The notes: generated from the letters alone by a model not told the origin. Positions 24,815 to 33,046 are shown, numbered from the stretch's first letter. The stretch is DNA of 64,000 nt from Minisyncoccota bacterium (GCA_041389025.1 JAWKSP010000002.1:105279-169278); one strand, 5' to 3'. Numbers and translations are program-made.

Positions 24815-26518
24815 CTATATTTCAATCTCATCTATAACCACTGTTTCCTCAATCTTTTTTTCTGGTTCTTCTATCACTTCTTCTACAACTTCATTATTCT
24901 CCTCAACTAATTCTTCTACCACCTCCTCAACAATAATTTCTTCCACAACATCAACCTTAGTTTCGCTAGATTTATCATTTACATCGGCTTGTTCATTAAT
25001 ATTATTTTCTTTTTCTTCTTGGTTATTTTGATTAGTATTTTGCTCTATTTCATTTTCATCTATTTGTCCTAACATCTCTTCTTTATCTTCGGTTGGTATG
25101 GTTGGCTTTTCGATAAATTCCTCTATTGTCTGTTCTTCTCCATTTTTTTCTTCACTATCGTTACTAGAAATAAAGGTTTGACTATCAATTACCAGTGGTA
25201 GAGTCATGGCTGGCTCAGCAATATTTCTAGTAAATTCAAAAGTTACAATTTCAGTGTCAATATAACCGCTGCCAGCCGTCTCACCATCAAGATAAGCGGT
25301 AAATATTAAATCTACTATACAAGGTGTTACTCCATAATAAAAATCAGATAAAGAAAAATCTAGTAAGAAGTCATTACCAATAATGGTCTCAGTTTTATTT
25401 AAATTAAGCAGATTTCCATTGTAAGAAAGCGGCGCTTCTGCTTTAACAGTAATCAAACCACACAAAGCAGAAGCGCCGCTTTCTTTTACTTCAATTTTAT
25501 AAACCAAACTCTCTTTTACTCGATTATCTAAATCAATACTAACCTCTGTAGTAGTGGTACCCAAAATATTATCATCTTCAGTCAAGAAATTTGTCTTAGA
25601 AGCAAAAATTGAAAAATCAACAGCTGTTGCCTGCATGCTGTTTGCAAAACTAATTTCTGTATCAGTTGGATAAGCAAAGGTAGTCATGTCTCCCAACATT
25701 TGCATAGAAACAAAAACCAGCAATACAAACCCCGCCACTACTGTTGAAGCCTGCGGTCTAATATCATGTGAAAAATTATAGCTATTTTTTTGTTCAACTA
25801 TCTTACCAGTAGAAGGTTCTATCATTTTTCTAGTTTTACCAGTTGGTTCTATATCCATTTTTTTTGTTTTAACGACTCTAGTTGGTAAATCAACTTTTAA
25901 GTTAACTTTTCTTAATGAATTTGCTGTTTGTATTTTTTTTACTTTTTGCTTTGAGCTATTTGGATCATAAGGAGTAATCACCAGCGGCACGACCATATCT
26001 TTATCAAATCTAAGTCCACGCATTCTTCTCACTTCCAACCAAATTTTTATTAGTTCATCTAGAACAATCAAAAAAGCCGGAATACCAACCAAAAGCCCAA
26101 AACCCAATGGTTGTCTGGCAAAATCAAGCATAAAACCAACGTACGGTATATCAAAGACTACTTTTCCAATAACATCACCGGCCGGTACCGGTTTTGCGTC
26201 TCTATCTTCGTTGGCGTCACCTTTGGTTATAAAATAACTCTTTCCATTTATATTTTCAGTATCAATTATCCTATGTGTAGTCGGAATCTTAGCGTTTTTA
26301 TCTGCAAAAGTGATAATATCACCAACTTTATAACTTTCAATTTCATGAATAGCCACCACTGCTCCAGTCATAATAGTTGGCTCCATCGAACCAGATTTCA
26401 CTATTTTAACTTCAATATTTCCAACCCCTGGAATTGGTGGCGCCATTAGCAAGAAAACCAAACCCAAAACGATTAGGATAAAAATTGTATAGGTGATATT
26501 ACTAATAATTTTTTTCAT
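24815..26518 (-). CDS. sipW: Archaeal/ER-type signal peptidase I (SipW-like, S26B) fused in frame to a TasA-like module that has its own internal SipW-cognate-type signal sequence and an acidic C-terminal tail.
   Basis: N-terminal 190 aa: TM, then VKIVKSGSMEPTIMTGAVV...IPTTHRII...FITKGDANEDRDAKPV..GKVVFDIPYVGF, then a second TM. These are the SipW / S26B catalytic Ser and His boxes. It is followed by a basic linker and VVAGFVLLVFVSMQMLGDMTTFAYPTDTEISFANSMQATAVDFSI, which resembles the GAFFSDTETS..N.FTAG..DL motif of the downstream paralogues. No stop codon separates the two parts. Confidence 0.8.
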   Translation of the reverse strand: MKKIISNITYTIFILIVLGLVFLLMAPPIPGVGNIEVKIVKSGSMEPTIMTGAVVAIHEIESYKVGDIITFADKNAKIPTTHRIIDTENINGKSYFITKGDANEDRDAKPVPAGDVIGKVVFDIPYVGFMLDFARQPLGFGLLVGIPAFLIVLDELIKIWLEVRRMRGLRFDKDMVVPLVITPYDPNSSKQKVKKIQTANSLRKVNLKVDLPTRVVKTKKMDIEPTGKTRKMIEPSTGKIVEQKNSYNFSHDIRPQASTVVAGFVLLVFVSMQMLGDMTTFAYPTDTEISFANSMQATAVDFSIFASKTNFLTEDDNILGTTTTEVSIDLDNRVKESLVYKIEVKESGASALCGLITVKAEAPLSYNGNLLNLNKTETIIGNDFLLDFSLSDFYYGVTPCIVDLIFTAYLDGETAGSGYIDTEIVTFEFTRNIAEPAMTLPLVIDSQTFISSNDSEEKNGEEQTIEEFIEKPTIPTEDKEEMLGQIDENEIEQNTNQNNQEEKENNINEQADVNDKSSETKVDVVEEIIVEEVVEELVEENNEVVEEVIEEPEKKIEETVVIDEIEI

Positions 26519-26523
26519 GTTTT

Positions 26524-27726
26524 TTATGTATTTTTATTCCAATCAAAACGGAAAAATAAACTATTAAATCTATCTCTTATTGACTTAGTAAAGAAATTTT
26601 CTTCAACTACCACTGGATAAAAATTTTCACTTTGCCCAGAAGGAAGACCATCATCGTCAGTATTATCGTTTTCGTCGTTAGAATTCCCTGGGTTTGAGTC
26701 ATCATTATGATCATCATCATTACCATGACCGTTATTACCTTTTGGTATACATGGTTTGCCATTTTGATCTACATATTCTTGTCCTAAAGCTTCGTATTTA
26801 ATCTGCCCAGAAGGAAGACCCTCATCGTCAGTATTATCGTTTTCGTCGTTAGAATTTCCTGGGTTTGAGTCATCATTATGATCATCATCATTACCATGAC
26901 CGTTATTACCTTTTGATTTTAATTTACAATAATTTTGTGGCGGTACTTTTTTATCACAAGAAAAACCTTCATTATATTTAGCTTGTACTGCTCGCAAGGA
27001 AACATCAACTGTCATTGAATCAGTTTGGCTTTCGTTACCCATCATTTTTCCGTCACAATTAACTTCTGCCGTATCAGTATTTACCATCAAATCTCCAGCA
27101 CACCATAATATACCCACATAATTAACCGAACCAGCCTTACAATAATTACCAGAATTAGAATAAGTGTTAGCTACAGCGTAAGTAGTACTAGCCAATAATA
27201 CATTAGCAGTTTTTGTACTGGTACCAAAAATTATCCTTTCACCAACCTCAAATTTATTGTCTCCATCGTCTTGCCAAGCAAAAAATTGTAGGTTTTGTGA
27301 TAATTCTCCACCAACTTCAGTATCCACCAATCCTTCCGGCTCGTTTGTACCATTTTCATGATCTTCTAAGTTGCTAAAATCAAGGCAAACATAAGCATCA
27401 TTCTTTTTTACATGCAAACTAATCAAATGTTCTCCTAAGTCACCTGGTTTAACATCATTAAAATTGAAAAATTTATCTGCTTTTGGTACTAGATTTTTAG
27501 CTTCCCAAGTAAGTGACGGTTGCAAAACACCATTATAAATTGCTTTACTTTCTACTGTTAGTTCTAATCCGGTTTTTTTATCTTTAGAATTATTATCTTG
27601 ATAATTACCGGTAGCAAAAGTGTAGCCGGCGTTAGCTCCGCTAACGCCGGCTACCACCAACAATAAAACTACTACTCCAACCAAAAGTGAAACTTTAACT
27701 CCTTTCTGGTAGATAAAACTTGTCAT
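26524..27726 (-). CDS. Secreted TasA-like paralogue. It shares the FNFNDVKPGD..ISLHV..NDAYVC...ENGTNEPE core with the other paralogues. It contains a duplicated 57-aa His/Asp/Asn-rich module.
   Basis: Core homology to the three upstream paralogues, including LGNESQTDSMTVDVSLRAVQAKYN. The N-terminus ...VAGVSGANAGYTFATGN is atypical. Confidence 0.7.
   Translation of the reverse strand: MTSFIYQKGVKVSLLVGVVVLLLVVAGVSGANAGYTFATGNYQDNNSKDKKTGLELTVESKAIYNGVLQPSLTWEAKNLVPKADKFFNFNDVKPGDLGEHLISLHVKKNDAYVCLDFSNLEDHENGTNEPEGLVDTEVGGELSQNLQFFAWQDDGDNKFEVGERIIFGTSTKTANVLLASTTYAVANTYSNSGNYCKAGSVNYVGILWCAGDLMVNTDTAEVNCDGKMMGNESQTDSMTVDVSLRAVQAKYNEGFSCDKKVPPQNYCKLKSKGNNGHGNDDDHNDDSNPGNSNDENDNTDDEGLPSGQIKYEALGQEYVDQNGKPCIPKGNNGHGNDDDHNDDSNPGNSNDENDNTDDDGLPSGQSENFYPVVVEENFFTKSIRDRFNSLFFRFDWNKNT
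26635..26919. repeat. 171-bp tandem direct repeat, about 1.7 copies and over 95% identical, inside gene 26524..27726.
   Basis: The unit starting CCCAGAAGGAAGACC at 26635 recurs at 26806. It encodes KGNNGHGNDDDHNDDSNPGNSNDENDNTDD(E/D)GLPSGQ twice. Confidence 0.85.
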
Positions 27727-27788
27727 GTAATAGTTTTTTTAGACTTTATACTACTTTAATGATTAATTTACTAAACCTTTTTTTAAAC

Positions 27789-29168
27789 TTAATTTGGTAT
27801 AACCGCACAGTTAAGTGCACTAATAGCATCTAGGTCATAACCATCGGCGGTTGCTTCAAATGGTGCTCGTGGTGATACGTCAGTTATTCTTACATATTTG
27901 GCCCAAGACAAACCAGAGCTTGCTAAATCAGCTTCTGAGTCACGATCTACACTAGCGGTTACTAAATACCAATCAAGCCCATCCTGACTTACCTCAATTT
28001 TAATTTTTTCTACCGGATAACTACTACCACCAGTTACTTCCCAAGCTCGCAAATCATTACCTGGCCCATCCACTATATAACCATCATCAAACTCAACTGT
28101 AATCCACCCTCCTTCAGTCTCGTTTTCATCTGGGTTAAAACCAAGACTAAAGAAGCTATTTGGTACAACTGGATTATCAAATGGTGTACCAAGACTTTGT
28201 GGAGCACCGATTACGTAAGATTCCACTGAACGACCAGCGTCTACTGGAGCACCATTTTTCTTTACTCCCTGTGACACTGCTATTACCTTGGTGGCGTATG
28301 ATTGTTCTGGTGTACAAGCCACTTGATTTGGTCTACATACAAAATCAGAATTATGTCGCGCTTGTACCGCACTAAATGACACATCTGCAGTTAAAGAGTC
28401 GGTTTGACTTTCGTTACCAAGCTTCGCTCCACTACATAGAAATCCTCCATCAGCTGGTTCACCCGCTTCTCCGTTATTATCGTTATCGTCAGCTGGACTC
28501 CATTCGTCCACCTCACCATCCTGATCTAAAGCTTGTGGTTCCATATCACCAAAACACCATGCTTTACCAATATAATAGGTCTCAGTTCCATTTATAGGAC
28601 CACCAAGAGCATTTTCATTCCAAATGTTAGTGTTTGAGTCGGCTAGCGCGATTGAATATGCTTGACCAATCGGTAGAGACCCAATTGGGGCTGGACCGGA
28701 AATTATCTCTTCATCATCCTCATAGACATTATCACCATCGTCAGCCCACCAAATGAAGTTTACCAAACCAGCCAACTCACCTTCGTCATCATCGATTGTT
28801 TGGTCAACCAAAGCCTCCGGCTCTGTTTGACCATTTTCATTATTTGAAGTTAGGGTTACATCAGCACAAACAAAAGAATCATTATTTTCTACGTGGATAG
28901 AAATAGTATCTTCACCATAATCCCCTGGCTTCACATCATCAAAATCAAAGAATTTTTCAATGGTTAAATCTTTCTTTTCCCATGATGTATTGTCGTTAAA
29001 AAGACCATTGTAATAGCTTTCGTTGTCTATCAGCAAGTCAATTGCTCCGGCGGTAAAGATGTTGTCGGTGGAGTTTTCTGTATCATTAAAAAAAGCTTTA
29101 GTCACCCCAAAAGCCGTAACACTGGCGGTTACCAAAATCATTGCCAAACTTAGAAAAATACGTCGCAT
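27789..29168 (-). CDS. Secreted TasA-like protein with a SipW-cognate signal peptide and a C-terminal beta-sandwich (galactose-binding/discoidin-like) domain.
   Basis: N-terminus MRRIFLSLAMILVTASVTAFGVTKAFFNDTENSTDNIFTAGAIDL. Core FDFDDVKPGDYGEDTISIHVENND. The C-terminal domain ...GGWITVEFDDGYIVDGPGNDLRAWEV...WAKYVRITD...ADGYDLDAISAL is called from its pattern only. Confidence 0.7.
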   Translation of the reverse strand: MRRIFLSLAMILVTASVTAFGVTKAFFNDTENSTDNIFTAGAIDLLIDNESYYNGLFNDNTSWEKKDLTIEKFFDFDDVKPGDYGEDTISIHVENNDSFVCADVTLTSNNENGQTEPEALVDQTIDDDEGELAGLVNFIWWADDGDNVYEDDEEIISGPAPIGSLPIGQAYSIALADSNTNIWNENALGGPINGTETYYIGKAWCFGDMEPQALDQDGEVDEWSPADDNDNNGEAGEPADGGFLCSGAKLGNESQTDSLTADVSFSAVQARHNSDFVCRPNQVACTPEQSYATKVIAVSQGVKKNGAPVDAGRSVESYVIGAPQSLGTPFDNPVVPNSFFSLGFNPDENETEGGWITVEFDDGYIVDGPGNDLRAWEVTGGSSYPVEKIKIEVSQDGLDWYLVTASVDRDSEADLASSGLSWAKYVRITDVSPRAPFEATADGYDLDAISALNCAVIPN

Positions 29169-29278
29169 AATCAGATTTCTTAATTATTAAATTAAATATT
29201 TTTTAATTTATAAAGCCCCCCAGCTAATAATCTTAATAAATTTATAAACTCAACGCGCTGATTCCCCTTTTCAGCCCA

Positions 29279-29307
29279 CTGAACATCTTAAACTTTAAGA
29301 TGTTCAG
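29279..29307. promoter_or_regulatory. 29-bp near-perfect palindrome, CTGAACATCTTAAA-C-TTTAAGATGTTCAG, in the intergenic leader between two tasA-like genes. Candidate operator or attenuator hairpin.
   Basis: Two 14-bp perfect inverted arms. It is embedded in a leader element conserved with the region 30860-30920. Confidence 0.45.
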
Positions 29308-29330
29308 AACGGCTAAATATAATCAGTTTT

Positions 29331-30812
29331 TTAGTTAATTGGGCAATCTGCCAAACCAGCTAAAATATTTTCAAGATCAGAAAACTCAGCGGCTGTAAAG
29401 TAATGAGCTGGTGAAGTAGCAATACCTTCTAGGAAAGTATTATTTACTCCATCACCAATACCAACTACGTATATAGTAGTACCGGCAGCTTTAGCGGCGT
29501 TAGCAGCTATTACAGCTGTTCCTTCGTCATCTGGTACACCATCAGTCATGATAAGCATAAAATCCGGTGCTTCTAAGACATCATCCCGGTCGCGTACACC
29601 AGAAAGCTCGGTTGATGCTAGACTAATACCAGCAGCTAGATTGGTAGTACCCCCTGAAGACAAGGCGTCAATAGCGGTATTGATATCAGCTAACACGTCA
29701 GTCAATTGTGAGTTTAAGGTAGCACCAAAATCAAAGTCCACCACACCAATGTGGTTGCCAGGGGTAGCTGGGGCTAATGCAGAAGCAAAAGCTTTCGCTG
29801 CAGTAGACATAACCCCTAACTCAGCAGGACTAATGCTACCTGATGAGTCAAGTACAAACACTACGTCATTTTCTTCGTTACAAGCCAATCCTCCATCTCG
29901 CTCATCACAAACAAAGTTTGGATTATTTCGAGCTTGTTCAACTCGAAAAGCAATATCAGCTGTCATACTGTCTGTTTGAGCTTCGTTCTTCATAGTTGAG
30001 CCATCACAAGTAACAGTTCCTTCAATTGAGGCGTCGATAGTACCAGCACACCAAGCTAACCCAATATACTGTGTAGTAGCCCCAGGGAAAGGAGTACCAG
30101 TAGTTGAATCTGCCAAAGTATAAGTTCGTCCACCAAGTACATCACTAGCTGGCCCAGAAACATTTGAGAATAGTTTTGGTTCTCCAGTCTCCCAAATATT
30201 GTCTCCATCATCAGCCCACGCAAAGAAAGTCATATTTTGAGCCAACTCTCCATCAAAATCATCGTTATTGTCCTCCGCCACGTCACCACTTTCAAGTTCC
30301 GGCTCAGTTGAAGAGACATCATCATTTTTAGTAATATCTACATCAACACACATCCATGCATCGTTATTTTCAACGTGTAATGAAATAGTGTTTTCACCGT
30401 TATCACCTGGTTTAACATCTTCAAAATCAAAGAAAGTATGAACTCCATCTTCAAGATCAGTCAAAGACCAAGTTCCAGCACAAGCATCACCAGCTTGTGG
30501 GACGTTAGCTGGGTTGGCAGTGTTGTAAGCAGTGTTGGCTGTGTCAATATCTTCACCATCTTTTAGTGCCAAATGAGCTGGTGTATCACCTTCTTCTGGC
30601 ACCCATTCAATAATATCTTCATCAGTCCAAGCACCATCAAAACAAACCAAACCATTGATATGCGCTACGCTGTCAACTTTTAGATCTAAAGCACCGGCGG
30701 TAAAGACGTTACCGGTAGAAGTCTCGGTGTCAGAGAAGAAAGCTCCAGTACCAGAAGCGACCAAAGCGACCGCAAATACGATCATTCCTAGACTTGTAAC
30801 AATTTTTTTCAT
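29331..30812 (-). CDS. Secreted TasA-like protein with a SipW-cognate signal peptide and a C-terminal von Willebrand factor A (vWA) domain carrying a MIDAS motif.
   Basis: N-terminus MKKIVTSLGMIVFAVALVASGTGAFFSDTETSTGNVFTAGALDL. The vWA part is VVFVLDSSGSISPAEL... (D-x-S-x-S MIDAS) ...MIMTDGVPDD...IYVVGIG. Confidence 0.8.
   Translation of the reverse strand: MKKIVTSLGMIVFAVALVASGTGAFFSDTETSTGNVFTAGALDLKVDSVAHINGLVCFDGAWTDEDIIEWVPEEGDTPAHLALKDGEDIDTANTAYNTANPANVPQAGDACAGTWSLTDLEDGVHTFFDFEDVKPGDNGENTISLHVENNDAWMCVDVDITKNDDVSSTEPELESGDVAEDNNDDFDGELAQNMTFFAWADDGDNIWETGEPKLFSNVSGPASDVLGGRTYTLADSTTGTPFPGATTQYIGLAWCAGTIDASIEGTVTCDGSTMKNEAQTDSMTADIAFRVEQARNNPNFVCDERDGGLACNEENDVVFVLDSSGSISPAELGVMSTAAKAFASALAPATPGNHIGVVDFDFGATLNSQLTDVLADINTAIDALSSGGTTNLAAGISLASTELSGVRDRDDVLEAPDFMLIMTDGVPDDEGTAVIAANAAKAAGTTIYVVGIGDGVNNTFLEGIATSPAHYFTAAEFSDLENILAGLADCPIN
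30690..30812. repeat. Copy B of a roughly 125-bp duplicated gene 5' end, 2 mismatches from copy A at 32450..32572.
   Basis: Base-by-base comparison shows only 2 substitutions. It encodes the identical signal peptide MKKIVTSLGMIVFAVALVASGTGAFFSDTETS. Confidence 0.9.
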
Positions 30813-30922
30813 AGCTATTTATTATTTGTAAAGTAATTAATTTTTTACTAAATATCATGCTGTCCCCTCCAGCCCGCCAAATTCCAGCCACCAGACTGAA
30901 ATTCGGAACGGCTGAGTAGGAT

Positions 30923-32572
30923 TTAGTTGTGCGGAAAAGCACTCACTTCTTCAGGTATAAAGTCAACCTCGTCTGTGCCACCAGTTTGAGCAGCTCCACC
31001 ATTTGGACCCCAGAAGTTGTTAATAGCGTTAACATTTCCTGCTAAGGCGCCATAGGTATTTAACATTGTTCCATCCAAGAAATTATTGAACTGCACAGTG
31101 GCTGGATTCGCATCGTGTGTCGAATCTGCCCCAACAGCTTCTGAACCAGGTACTGTATGTTCAAATTCATTGTATTGAACAGTTACTCCATTAAGTCCAC
31201 CAATACCGGCAGTGTTACCGTCGATGTCGTTATACTCGATTACAATAGTTCCAGTGTGTGGATTGGTGTAAATACCAGTTGTTAAATCGTGAATATGATT
31301 TCTAACAATATCTACATTTGAATAGGTAGCAGCGGTTACTGTCTCAACTCCACGTGAACTAGCCTCACTTAAACCATCAATGTCGTTGTAAGAGACTTCA
31401 ACGTTACTTAAATCACCATTAAGGTAAACAGCAGCGTTGGTTCCCAAGAAAGAACCTGGATTAATCACAAAACCAGTAAGTGTCACATCATCTGCCTCAA
31501 TAATCACACCGTTCTGGATGGTAGCTGTATTAGTCGGGCCATTCACAGAAGCTAGGGTTAACGGTTTATCAATAGTCACTGTTTCATCATAGCTACCGTC
31601 CCCAACACAAACAACGTCACTTGGTGTAGCACTATTAACCGCATCTTGAATTGACTGACTATCATCAGCTACCGTAACGTCACAACTTGGTGCCACATAG
31701 TCAGACAAGGATGCTCCTACCAGTTGACGTGGCTCTTGCCCTCCATCAAGTGGTGGTAAAGAAGCACATCTAAACGCATCGTTGTGACGAGCTTGCACCG
31801 CATGGAAAGCTACATCAACTTCGATACCATCGGTTTGAGCATCATTATGGTCGCCTTGCGCGCCAGTACAAGCAAATCCGGTATTATCAACAGTCGGTGC
31901 CCCATAATCATCTTGAGGCACTGCATCAGGTGAAATATCACCAAAACACCATCCTTTTCCAATGTAAGCGGTTTCTCCACCAGAGAACGGTTCGTCACCT
32001 GACTCAGCCAAAGCTAGCCAGTTACCTGTAAAGATTTCACTTGAAAGACCACTTAAAGCGTCGATGATTTTTTCATCATCTTCCAAGACATTGTCTCCGT
32101 CATCGTGCCAGAAAAGGAAAGAAAGATAATTTTGCAGCTCTCCTTCGTCAGCGCCGGCTGTGTTATCAACGTCCACTTCTGGCTCAGTCTGATCATTTTC
32201 CGGCGTTCCGGTCAAGTCAAACGCCATACAGGCATAAGCGTCATTGTCGTTCACATGCAAGGAGATAGTATCTTCACCATAATCCCCCGGTTTTAAATCA
32301 CGGAAGTTAAAGAAGAGCTGATCCGTCAAATCAGACAACTCCCACGAATTACTGTCGTTTGGTCCCCATACACCAGTCGCCTGATCTAGCGGGATAGCTG
32401 GGTTATTCCAATCAAACCCATAGCTGGAATTATCAATCAAAAGATCAATAGCTCCGGCGGTAAAGACGTTACCGGCAGAAGTCTCGGTGTCAGAGAAGAA
32501 AGCTCCAGTACCAGAAGCGACCAAAGCGACCGCAAATACGATCATTCCTAGACTTGTAACAATTTTTTTCAT
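30923..32572 (-). CDS. Secreted TasA-like protein with a SipW-cognate signal peptide and C-terminal right-handed parallel beta-helix repeats (pectate-lyase/NosD-like).
   Basis: Same N-terminus as the downstream paralogue. Core NFRDLKPGDYGEDTISLHVNDNDAYACM. The C-terminal part has repeated V/I-x-N-x-I segments: VTLTGFVINP, VEVSYNDIDG, DIVRNHIHD, IVIEYNDIDGN, VTVQYNEFEH. Confidence 0.75.
   Translation of the reverse strand: MKKIVTSLGMIVFAVALVASGTGAFFSDTETSAGNVFTAGAIDLLIDNSSYGFDWNNPAIPLDQATGVWGPNDSNSWELSDLTDQLFFNFRDLKPGDYGEDTISLHVNDNDAYACMAFDLTGTPENDQTEPEVDVDNTAGADEGELQNYLSFLFWHDDGDNVLEDDEKIIDALSGLSSEIFTGNWLALAESGDEPFSGGETAYIGKGWCFGDISPDAVPQDDYGAPTVDNTGFACTGAQGDHNDAQTDGIEVDVAFHAVQARHNDAFRCASLPPLDGGQEPRQLVGASLSDYVAPSCDVTVADDSQSIQDAVNSATPSDVVCVGDGSYDETVTIDKPLTLASVNGPTNTATIQNGVIIEADDVTLTGFVINPGSFLGTNAAVYLNGDLSNVEVSYNDIDGLSEASSRGVETVTAATYSNVDIVRNHIHDLTTGIYTNPHTGTIVIEYNDIDGNTAGIGGLNGVTVQYNEFEHTVPGSEAVGADSTHDANPATVQFNNFLDGTMLNTYGALAGNVNAINNFWGPNGGAAQTGGTDEVDFIPEEVSAFPHN
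32450..32572. repeat. Copy A of the duplicated gene 5' end. See 30690..30812.
   Basis: Near-identical to 30690..30812. Confidence 0.9.
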
Positions 32573-32951
32573 AACTAAGATTTTGTTATTAATTATTTAA
32601 TTAAGTTTATAAATTCACCACGAATTTTGTTAAAAACGCTGGAGACAAAACCAACCATTAAACGTTTTGTCACCCATAAGGAATAGTGTAAACCGTCTGA
32701 CACAAAGCTTTAAATCGTTCAATAGTTACCTGAAGCAACTAAAAACTTGACAGTCTTTTTGTGGAAAACTTTTAATTAAATTGCTAGAAATAAAAATACT
32801 TTAAAAAATAAACCTGTTGATAAAGTGTAGATAAACTATGCATAACCTCTGTATAAAGTGTGGATTTCGGGTTAATAAAATGTTTATTGTAAAAATACGA
32901 CACAATTTTGTAGAGAAGTAAATAATTTTTTTGGTTTTTTTGAGTAATTTG

Positions 32952-32985
32952 ACTTGAAAAGCGTGGCGCCGTAGGCGCCACGCAA
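32952..32985 (-). terminator. GC-rich hairpin GCGTGGCGCC-GTAG-GCGCCACGC with flanking A/T runs. Candidate bidirectional terminator downstream of gene 33047..33424.
   Basis: 10-bp perfect stem. AAAAAAAA follows on the + strand and CTTTTCAAG on the minus strand. Confidence 0.5.
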
Positions 32986-33046
32986 AAAAAACCGATTGAG
33001 CACAAAACTCAATCGGTGTTATCTTAATATCATAATTTAATCCTTT

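Follow-up and report, generated by a model that had tools for sequence, protein, structure and literature searches.

A conserved two-helix RNA element between tandem tasA-like genes of Patescibacteria

A stretch of 64,000 nucleotides (nt) from a Minisyncoccota bacterium (GCA_041389025.1 JAWKSP010000002.1:105279-169278), here called the window, carries an operon of four tasA/camelysin-like genes followed by a gene for a SipW-like signal peptidase. Two of the spacers between these genes hold a sense-strand RNA element of about 65 nt, which we call E. The palindrome that drew attention to this region in an earlier note is the variable core of E. One strand of E has two conserved pairing partners, so that two helices compete for it. 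E is a new family of RNA motifs whose general kind is familiar; its two-helix design is unusual, and it is found in one operon type. It probably controls the cutting, stabilisation or translation of the operon mRNA.

Two copies of the element in the window

Both copies of E share one layout. On the gene strand it reads YAGCC-GUU-C, a variable hairpin of 13 base pairs (bp), G-(C/U)G-GGCUG, a purine tract and CAGC. In the minus-strand DNA of the two spacers this is AGCCGTTC-[hairpin]-G(Y)GGGCTG-(purine-rich)-CAGC, at 29272-29314 and 30870-30913. The earlier note had claimed that sequence flanking the palindrome recurs in a second spacer, and this is borne out: the pattern AGCCGTTC N15-45 GGGCTG has exactly two matches in the 64 kb against 0.01 expected, and none of 100 shuffled sequences held two or more.

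The first copy, E1, follows gene 1 and extends from the pyrimidine tract to the end of helix P3 at 30859-30921 (minus strand, as are all features given here unless stated). A covariance model of the family, R1, matches it at 30851-30927 (67.5 bits, E-value 2.7e-17). The gene 1 stop codon, TAA at 30923-30925, stands 9 nt before the AGCC of E1. The 5' side consists of the P0 strand UCCU (30918-30921) and the P1 strand CAGCC (30910-30914). These are followed by P2, a 13-bp variable hairpin with several G.U pairs (CCGAAUUUCAGUC-UGGU-GGCUGGAAUUUGG, 30877-30906). The shared strand GGCUG (30870-30874) comes next. It can pair with CAGCC to form P1 or, as GCUG (30870-30873), with the downstream CAGC (30859-30862) to form P3. 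Between them the purine tract GAGGGGA (30863-30869) serves as the 3' strand of P0 and as the loop of P3.

The second copy, E2, follows gene 2 and occupies 29257-29326 as a whole structured unit, with an R1 match at 29249-29328 (56.6 bits, E-value 8.1e-14). Its P2 is the palindrome of the earlier note, 29 nt at 29279-29307, which reads CTGAACATCTTAAA-C-TTTAAGATGTTCAG on the plus strand. It had been called near-perfect and is in fact perfect (14+1+14); as RNA it forms a 13-bp stem with a 3-nt loop. The junction GUU (29308-29310) and the P1 5' strand UAGCC (29311-29315) lie on one side of P2, and the shared strand GGCUG (29272-29276), which is both the 3' strand of P1 and the 5' strand of P3, lies on the other. 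P3 is the hairpin GCUGA-AAAGGGGAA-UCAGC (29257-29275). In the intact RNA, AAUCAG (29258-29263) pairs instead with CUGAUU (29321-29326). The gene 2 stop codon, TAA at 29331-29333, lies 16 nt before the AGCC of E2, and an out-of-frame UGA (29323-29325) occupies the usual stop position at -11 to -9. A third, weaker module is an AU box, ATTATTA at 29225-29231, downstream of E2; its counterpart at E1 is ATTAATT only (30835-30841). The next ATG is 57 nt from E1 and 103 nt from E2.

Folding favours the gene strand. On the minus strand, where the earlier note had suggested that the two spacers be folded, both do far better than shuffled sequences: E1 reaches -31.7 kcal/mol (z -4.1) and uses G.U pairs, and E2 reaches -29.9 kcal/mol (z -5.5). 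The plus strand of E1 folds poorly (-16.9 kcal/mol, z -1.6). The earlier note spoke of a shared structured 5' leader. The structured minus-strand element is there, but because it adjoins the upstream stop codon, "intercistronic" or "3'-of-gene" describes it better than "leader".

The likeness of the two spacers might have come from the duplication that copied the 5' ends of the genes. A direct repeat of 161 nt with 91% identity (30682-30842 versus 32442-32602) takes in ~130 nt at the start of genes 1 and 2 and stops about 30 nt upstream of the ATG. It excludes E, and gene 1 has the duplicated 5' end with no E before it. The duplication therefore does not explain the similarity of the spacers. 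In the window, neither the pattern nor the covariance model finds a copy of E upstream of gene 1 (30923-32572) or after gene 3 (27789-29168).

A covarying helix and its competitor

To collect relatives, the conserved N-terminal domain of the tasA-like proteins was used to scan GTDB, with one genome for each species. This gave 80 loci (cited by L number), or 81 sequences and 1.31 Mb with the window. All 80 come from metagenome-assembled genomes of Patescibacteria type, including Paceibacterota and Kaiser-, Taylor-, Nomura- and Zambryskibacteria; some carry the automatic labels "Saccharibacteria" or "Gammaproteobacteria". The bare E pattern occurs in 17 of the 80, on the gene strand every time. 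R1, built from 21 copies, gives 33 matches at an E-value of 1 or less in the 81 sequences, 31 of them below 1e-5, and again all are on the gene strand. Every one of the 33 lies within or adjoining a tasA-like array, and nearly every copy has tasA-like genes on both sides. The 8+8-nt cores of E are identical across genomes whose flanking proteins share only 45-55% identity. The further copies and the covariation that the earlier note's idea called for are both present, as 31 confident copies and compensation at all 11 pairs of P2.

Metagenomes were scanned with a stricter DNA pattern, TAGCCGTTC N14-40 GCGGGCTG N4-14 CAGC. Among the 80 metagenome loci listed, R1 recognises 4 further true copies in 3 loci, once more between tasA-like genes. 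About 70 of these 80 loci are chance matches, so the set gives no unbiased view of other genomic contexts. One group of near-identical, GC-rich (73%) coding regions from soil metagenomes (L106, L108, L111, L127 and L131) scores 27 bits with R1 and was judged a chance match because no tasA-like gene is nearby.

Sequence comparison points to one interrupted helix in the intact RNA, made of three stacked parts on which RNAalifold and pair counting agree. P0 pairs the pyrimidine tract with the purine tract, P1 pairs YAGCC with GGCUG, and P2 is the variable hairpin of 11-13 bp. A small asymmetric internal loop, GUU/CG, is conserved between P1 and P2, with junction nucleotides that vary in weaker members and variants (GUA, GAA, GCA, UCUU/ACC). 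P2 shows compensatory double changes at 11 of 11 pairs, with 96% of cells paired. P1 is almost invariant, and is compensated where it does change, in L036 (AACC/GGUU) and L159:145-220 (CGGCU/AGCUG). P0 covaries as well (UCAUCU/AGAUGA, GUCUUC/GAAGAC, UUUUC/GAAAA, UUCUCU/AGAGAA), and cognate strands pair better than non-cognate ones (permutation p=0.013). Overall 94.5% of cells are paired, compared with 75% in column shuffles and 38-50% with slid partners. Among paired cells, G.U outnumbers A.C by 84 to 12 (p=2e-14). The fold thus belongs to the sense strand, as RNA or, less plausibly, as single-stranded DNA of that strand, and not to a palindrome in duplex DNA. The whole helix has a median of 24 bp, about two turns, and measures 19-28 bp in 33 of 35 copies despite the free variation of the P2 sequence. 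A T-loop or tRNA-like reading of GUUCYGA was rejected, as its bases are paired and covary.

The second helix, P3, competes with the first. CAGC is nearly always found downstream of GGCUG, and GCUG(N)...(N')CAGC forms a hairpin of 4-7 bp whose loop is the purine tract or, in some copies, a GNRA tetraloop. On a structure-blind MAFFT alignment P3 is 87.5% paired. Its fifth pair occurs as all four Watson-Crick types in 37 copies (AU 8, GC 7, UA 5, CG 2, with GU/UG in 6). P1 and P3 are mutually exclusive because both use the same GCUG. In minimum-energy folds the full-length RNA has P1 in 30 of 34 copies, and removal of the 5' strand (P0/P1) yields P3 in 32 of 34; P3 is thus predicted to form only with the 5' strand unavailable. 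Both of these exclusive helices are evolutionarily maintained, as in attenuators and riboswitches. AGCC, GGCUG and CAGC presumably change so little because one strand must serve two conserved partners. A pseudoknot in which P0 and P3 form together was disfavoured on geometric grounds, since the 0-2 nt between the purine tract and CAGC would be too few to span a 5-7-bp helix. Downstream, an AU box (ATTAWTA) lies within 55 nt after GGCUG in 14 of 31 copies, compared with 1.6% of control windows, and is enriched at 14-27 nt.

E has a regular place in the tasA-like arrays. It occupies 29 of 136 junctions between tasA-like genes, in 24 of the 81 sequences (the window and 23 loci), with up to three copies per array. 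Spacers with E have a median length of 112 nt, and those without it 37 nt. A typical array reads [long accessory gene]-E-([accessory gene]-E-)[core gene of ~460-480 amino acids (aa)]-short spacer-[core gene of ~300-400 aa]-sipW, and E always parts accessory first genes from the core pair. The earlier note spoke of a ratio between major subunits and minor adhesin-bearing subunits. A major-then-minor picture is the reverse of the gene order seen: the long, variable genes with adhesin domains come before E, and the conserved core pair after it. The closest relative, L001, is arranged gene 1-E-gene 3-like, so the window carries one extra "gene 2 + E" module.

The distance from E to the upstream stop codon is constrained. 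The gap between stop codon and AGCC is exactly 8 nt in 10 of 20 cases and 8-11 nt in 14 of 20. TAG makes up about 60% of these stop codons versus 36% for other long open reading frames (ORFs) of the same loci, a modest excess. The next start codon lies 16-120 nt beyond P3, at variable distance and in variable frame.

Variation within the family extends further. L062:9775-9961 has two tandem copies in one 220-nt spacer, the first of them degenerate (GGGCCG/CCGC, 19 bits). Divergent variants (L002:9776-9976, L003, L017) keep AGCC...GGCUG...CAGC with a changed internal loop. When variants are counted in, about 45% of junctions of 60-600 nt carry E-like elements. Long spacers (100-170 nt) without E, as in L007, L039, L045, L051, L058, L060/L070 and L073, contain other, unrelated strong hairpins, often built like E with an outer helix, an internal loop and an inner helix of 12-15 bp. 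Hairpins between cistrons thus seem to be common to tasA-like arrays in general, and E is one conserved family of them. An all-against-all association of ORF families found no neighbouring gene family specific to E-bearing arrays (best p=0.03 before correction).

E corresponds to no described family that we searched. All 4227 models of Rfam 15, which include riboswitches, EAR, JUMPstart and all known self-cleaving ribozymes, returned only a tRNA-Ser from the whole window at the gathering threshold. Permissive scans (E-value of 10 or less) of both window copies and two L014 copies gave only chance matches far below threshold. Literature searches found no published description of the motif. The eps-associated RNA (EAR) of Bacillus biofilm operons is similar in being conserved, structured and placed between genes of an extracellular-matrix operon. 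Unlike E, which gives no sequence or structure match to it in the Rfam scans, is much smaller and sits at successive junctions, EAR occurs once per operon and acts in processive antitermination.

Possible roles of the element

With these results, the earlier note's idea of an attenuator or processing site that sets subunit ratios appears to be the best class of explanation left. Within it, our favoured reading, to which we give a probability of about 0.4, is that E may be an intercistronic processing or stability signal which, once cut or passed by a ribosome, would refold, and which sets accessory adhesin genes apart from core genes. An endonuclease would act on the long helix, close to the internal loop and in the manner of RNase III, on the AU-rich, RAUUW-like box that immediately follows, or on both. 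P2 would stay with the upstream cistron as a protective 3' hairpin cap. The freed GGCUG strand would snap into P3, giving the downstream RNA a structure at, or close to, its new 5' end. Variable adhesin-bearing and conserved core cistrons would then have different mRNA lifetimes and, as a result, different protein ratios.

Several features fit processing. E offers what an RNase III-type site has in structural terms, about 20 bp or more of double strand with an internal loop between cistrons. The helix runs for about two turns, there is no U-tract or promoter, an AU box is present, E-less spacers hold similar hairpins, and accessory genes are separated from core genes. The AU box resembles the classical RAUUW preference of RNase E-type enzymes. 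It is established for other bacteria that operon segments flanked by protective structures decay at different rates (PMC5927463). Like the RNase III hairpins between cistrons of the phage T7 R1.1 type and like operon-decay systems (e.g. PMC5927463), E is intercistronic and repeated per transcript. It shares with RNase III sites an interrupted helix of this length, the asymmetric internal loop and the missing U-tract, and its end hairpins could protect cistrons and set unequal stoichiometry. Unlike such sites, E has cores conserved across distant genomes and a second hairpin, P3, abuts a stop codon and belongs to one gene family. As an intergenic hairpin able to stabilise upstream mRNA, E also resembles REP/BIME palindromes. 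Unlike E, whose architecture is composite and conserved and whose matches in 1.31 Mb all fall in or beside tasA-like arrays, REP sequences are dispersed genome-wide; the two copies in the 64-kb window are both in the tasA array.

Other points weigh against a processing signal. RNase III has little sequence specificity, so the near-invariant AGCC, GGCUG and CAGC need another explanation; the constraint of pairing among three partners may be one. No RNase III was found among the 27 window ORFs scanned, which says nothing about the genome at large. Fewer than half of the copies have the AU box. One degenerate copy without P0 (L005:3057-3130) has no tasA-like gene before it, and another (L009:14-96) precedes the first visible gene of its array, at a contig edge. 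The tight 8-nt stop spacing and the modest excess of TAG point to a terminating ribosome, and a pure processing model needs neither.

The main rival, which we consider unlikely, takes up the terminating ribosome. Here a ribosome stopping 8 nt before P1 would melt P0 and P1 and let P3 form transiently. This would expose the purine-rich loop, which resembles a Shine-Dalgarno (SD) sequence or a GGA motif, or hide the CAGC region. Translation of the upstream cistron would then govern what becomes of the downstream one (re-initiation, standby binding or Rho access). The spacing of the stop codon and the modest excess of TAG speak for such a switch, and P3 does form in the folds when the 5' strand is masked. 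Where the real stop codon lies further upstream, in-frame extra stops or stop-like triplets are found at the same position. The pyrimidine tract is like an anti-SD and the purine tract like an SD. In the L017 variant 8 nt separate the purine-rich 3' side, GGAGGGG, which belongs largely to the 3' end of the inner stem, from the next ATG.

Other features argue against it. SD use in the genome is nearly nil, with an SD-like 4-mer upstream of 3 of 48 genes (window ORFs of at least 150 aa), which makes the purine tract an unlikely ordinary ribosome-binding site. The next start codon is at no fixed distance from P3, and no conserved mini-ORF follows the purine tract: an SD or mini-ORF reading was disfavoured because few copies have a start codon past the tract and the ORFs are of 3-4 codons and unconserved. 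Compaction of the genome alone could put a stop codon at the edge of the element, and the L005 copy does without an upstream tasA-like gene. A stop codon (mostly UAG), 8 nt and a stable structure also recall stop-codon recoding signals such as the readthrough pseudoknot of MuLV type, with its spacer of about 8 nt. Unlike those signals, E has no conserved in-frame extension (at E1 an in-frame stop follows after 24 codons), its spacer length and frame vary, and its P2 sequence changes freely, by compensatory changes that would not preserve a peptide.

A bolder proposal is somewhat harder to credit still. In it, E would be an undescribed bistable class of RNA that reads out a terminating ribosome or cleaves itself, each event flipping the 24-bp helix into P3.

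Attenuation or factor-dependent termination, which would reduce read-through from the accessory genes with P1 and P3 as terminator and antiterminator alternatives, is doubtful. A stable GC-rich hairpin directly after a stop codon would suit it, the stoichiometry argument of the earlier note applies, and E resembles attenuators and riboswitch platforms in that GGCUG has two conserved alternative partners, each with covariation support. Unlike those platforms, E lies between genes in several copies, lacks a terminator U-tract and sequesters no start codon or SD. E has a hairpin, but a scan for intrinsic terminators is blank there: the sequence after P1 and P3 is purine-rich or mixed, with no U-run after P2/P1 or P3, unlike the evident U-tract terminators that bracket the operon (32991-33017 before it, ~24740 after it). 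No promoter is predicted past E to restart transcription, and efficient termination would starve the downstream core genes and sipW.

A riboregulator that binds a ligand or protein seems a little less likely again. The internal loop with P0/P1 would be a small aptamer, or a CsrA-like protein would bind a GGA-containing P3 loop, and P1/P3 would form the expression platform. In its favour, a junction is flanked by about 20 near-invariant nucleotides, P1 and the alternative helix have a strand in common as riboswitch helices do, and A(N)GGA is a frequent P3 loop. Second-messenger riboswitches often control adhesin and pilus genes. Set against this, the junction nucleotides vary in weaker members, several copies have a GNRA tetraloop for the purine loop, multiple copies per operon would be unusual for a sensor, and the neighbourhood of E-bearing arrays yielded no co-occurring candidate for a binding protein.

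It is improbable that E is a single-stranded DNA recombination site at the 3' end of mobile tasA-like cassettes, as integron attC sites are. The likeness lies in the conserved outer pairing, the unpaired spacer, the variable inner palindrome and the position directly after an ORF, one per accessory gene; the window's extra "gene 2 + E" module relative to L001 would agree. Unlike attC, E lacks the R''/R' cores RYYYAAC/GTTRRRY (it ends YAGCCGUUC and GCGGGCUG, and neither strand fits), and its P3, pyrimidine/purine pairing and AU box have no attC counterpart. A scan of 27 window ORFs around the operon gave no recombinase or integrase domain. Gene 2 also looks like a chimera made by homologous exchange (91% 5' duplication), and the heavy use of G.U favours RNA, although single-stranded DNA tolerates G.T.

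A new self-cleaving ribozyme, which would cut the operon mRNA at each junction and fold P3 afterwards, is more improbable yet: E is small, conserved, possibly pseudoknotted and intergenic, has invariant junction nucleotides in its main group and matches no known class, but across the wider family these nucleotides are not invariant, and two alternative helices explain most of the conserved bases. Least credible of all is a duplex-DNA operator, an internal promoter or a passive leftover of the duplication behind the paralogues, for, despite the perfect 29-bp palindrome of E2 and the tandem paralogous genes, half-site sequences differ between copies and only pairing is conserved (with all 11 pairs compensated, an operator in double-stranded DNA is excluded), folding is strand-asymmetric, no sigma-70-like promoter is predicted on the sense strand in either spacer (total matches equal the shuffle expectation), the 5'-end duplication leaves E out, and the cores are identical between genomes with such divergent flanking proteins. 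What the earlier note observed is thus real, and its regulatory element within the operon holds in spirit; the leader, the operator or promoter and the major-before-minor gene order do not.

The host operon and its biology

The operon spans 24815-32572 on the minus strand of a genome of Patescibacteria type with low GC content (~36%). Its four tasA-like genes, with SipW-type signal peptides, are gene 1 (30923-32572, 549 aa, with a beta-helix C-terminus), gene 2 (29331-30812, 493 aa, with a VWA domain), gene 3 (27789-29168, 459 aa, with a weak, sub-threshold F5/8-type-C match) and gene 4 (26524-27726, 400 aa). The fifth gene encodes the SipW-type signal peptidase (24815-26518). Genes 1-4 are paralogous, and all four align across the N-terminal domain. 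The N-termini of genes 1 and 2 score above threshold for the camelysin/TasA family and that of gene 3 below it, and the "SipW-dependent signal peptide" model recognises genes 1 and 2. The conserved core pair consists of genes 3 and 4, which share about 70% identity with their counterparts in L049 and L052; genes 1 and 2 are accessory. Over the signal peptide, their first 32 aa, the proteins of genes 1 and 2 do not differ. Gene 2 shares its duplicated 5' end with gene 1, and the rest of its N-domain resembles the opening gene of other arrays (L049, L052), which gives it the look of a recombinant chimera. An exact-sequence look-up of its protein returned no record.

The proteins of genes 1-3 all end in P-x-N or P-N (FPHN, CPIN, IPN), although the C-terminal domains of genes 1 and 2 differ, and the L001 and L012 orthologues end in PHN. 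These endings may be a conserved C-terminal signal encoded just before E. Upstream of many window genes a TATAAT-like or TGnTATAAT box ends 8-14 nt ahead of the ATG, which suggests leaderless or very short-leader mRNAs in this organism.

Other repeats and hairpins were seen in and near the operon. The 474-nt non-coding region upstream of gene 1 (32573-33046) holds the terminator at 32991-33017 and a second GC palindrome (gcgtggcgcc-tac-ggcgccacgc, ~32960-32982), then a long AT-rich stretch; its best promoter-like site, 32886-32914, would give a leader of about 300 nt. Gene 4 has a perfect 15-bp hairpin with a 3-nt loop (GTAGCCGGCGTTAGC-GGA-GCTAACGCCGGCTAC) at 27622-27654, 72-104 nt past its start in the region coding for the signal peptide; the scan calls it terminator-like, and its T-run is weak. 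The same gene contains an internal direct repeat of 119 nt with 96% identity (26626-26744 versus 26797-26915), two copies of a G/N/D/H-rich segment (KGNNGHGNDDDHNDDSNPGNSNDENDNTDD.GLPSGQ). In the 567-aa SipW-like peptidase only the first ~160 residues or so form the peptidase domain, and a long extension ends in highly acidic E/V/I-rich repeats. The part of the gene coding for this C-terminal extension carries a perfect 22-nt inverted repeat with a 19-nt spacer (AAAGAAAGCGGCGCTTCTGCTTT ... AAAGCAGAAGCGCCGCTTTCTT, 25423-25485), of unusual length and perfection for coding sequence.

E combines strong covariation with restriction to one operon type, repetition within operons and absence from Rfam. 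Its two exclusive, conserved helices make a testable prediction, namely refolding after cleavage or ribosome passage, and the element could serve as a compact natural "insulator" part. Were it only a stabilising hairpin, E would be ordinary in kind and still a useful annotation marker for tasA-like arrays. If instead the bistable proposal were true, the downstream adhesin or fibre cistron would have an independent fate in Patescibacteria that do without SD sequences, and these organisms would have a dedicated way to express internal cistrons across long spacers where leaderless or short-leader initiation seems the rule. To our knowledge, very few cis-regulatory RNAs have been described for Patescibacteria (also called CPR). 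Surface fibres and adhesins are regarded as key to how these bacteria live as episymbionts. E offers a handle on how the ratio of variable adhesin-bearing to core subunits may be tuned in these reduced, SD-less genomes.

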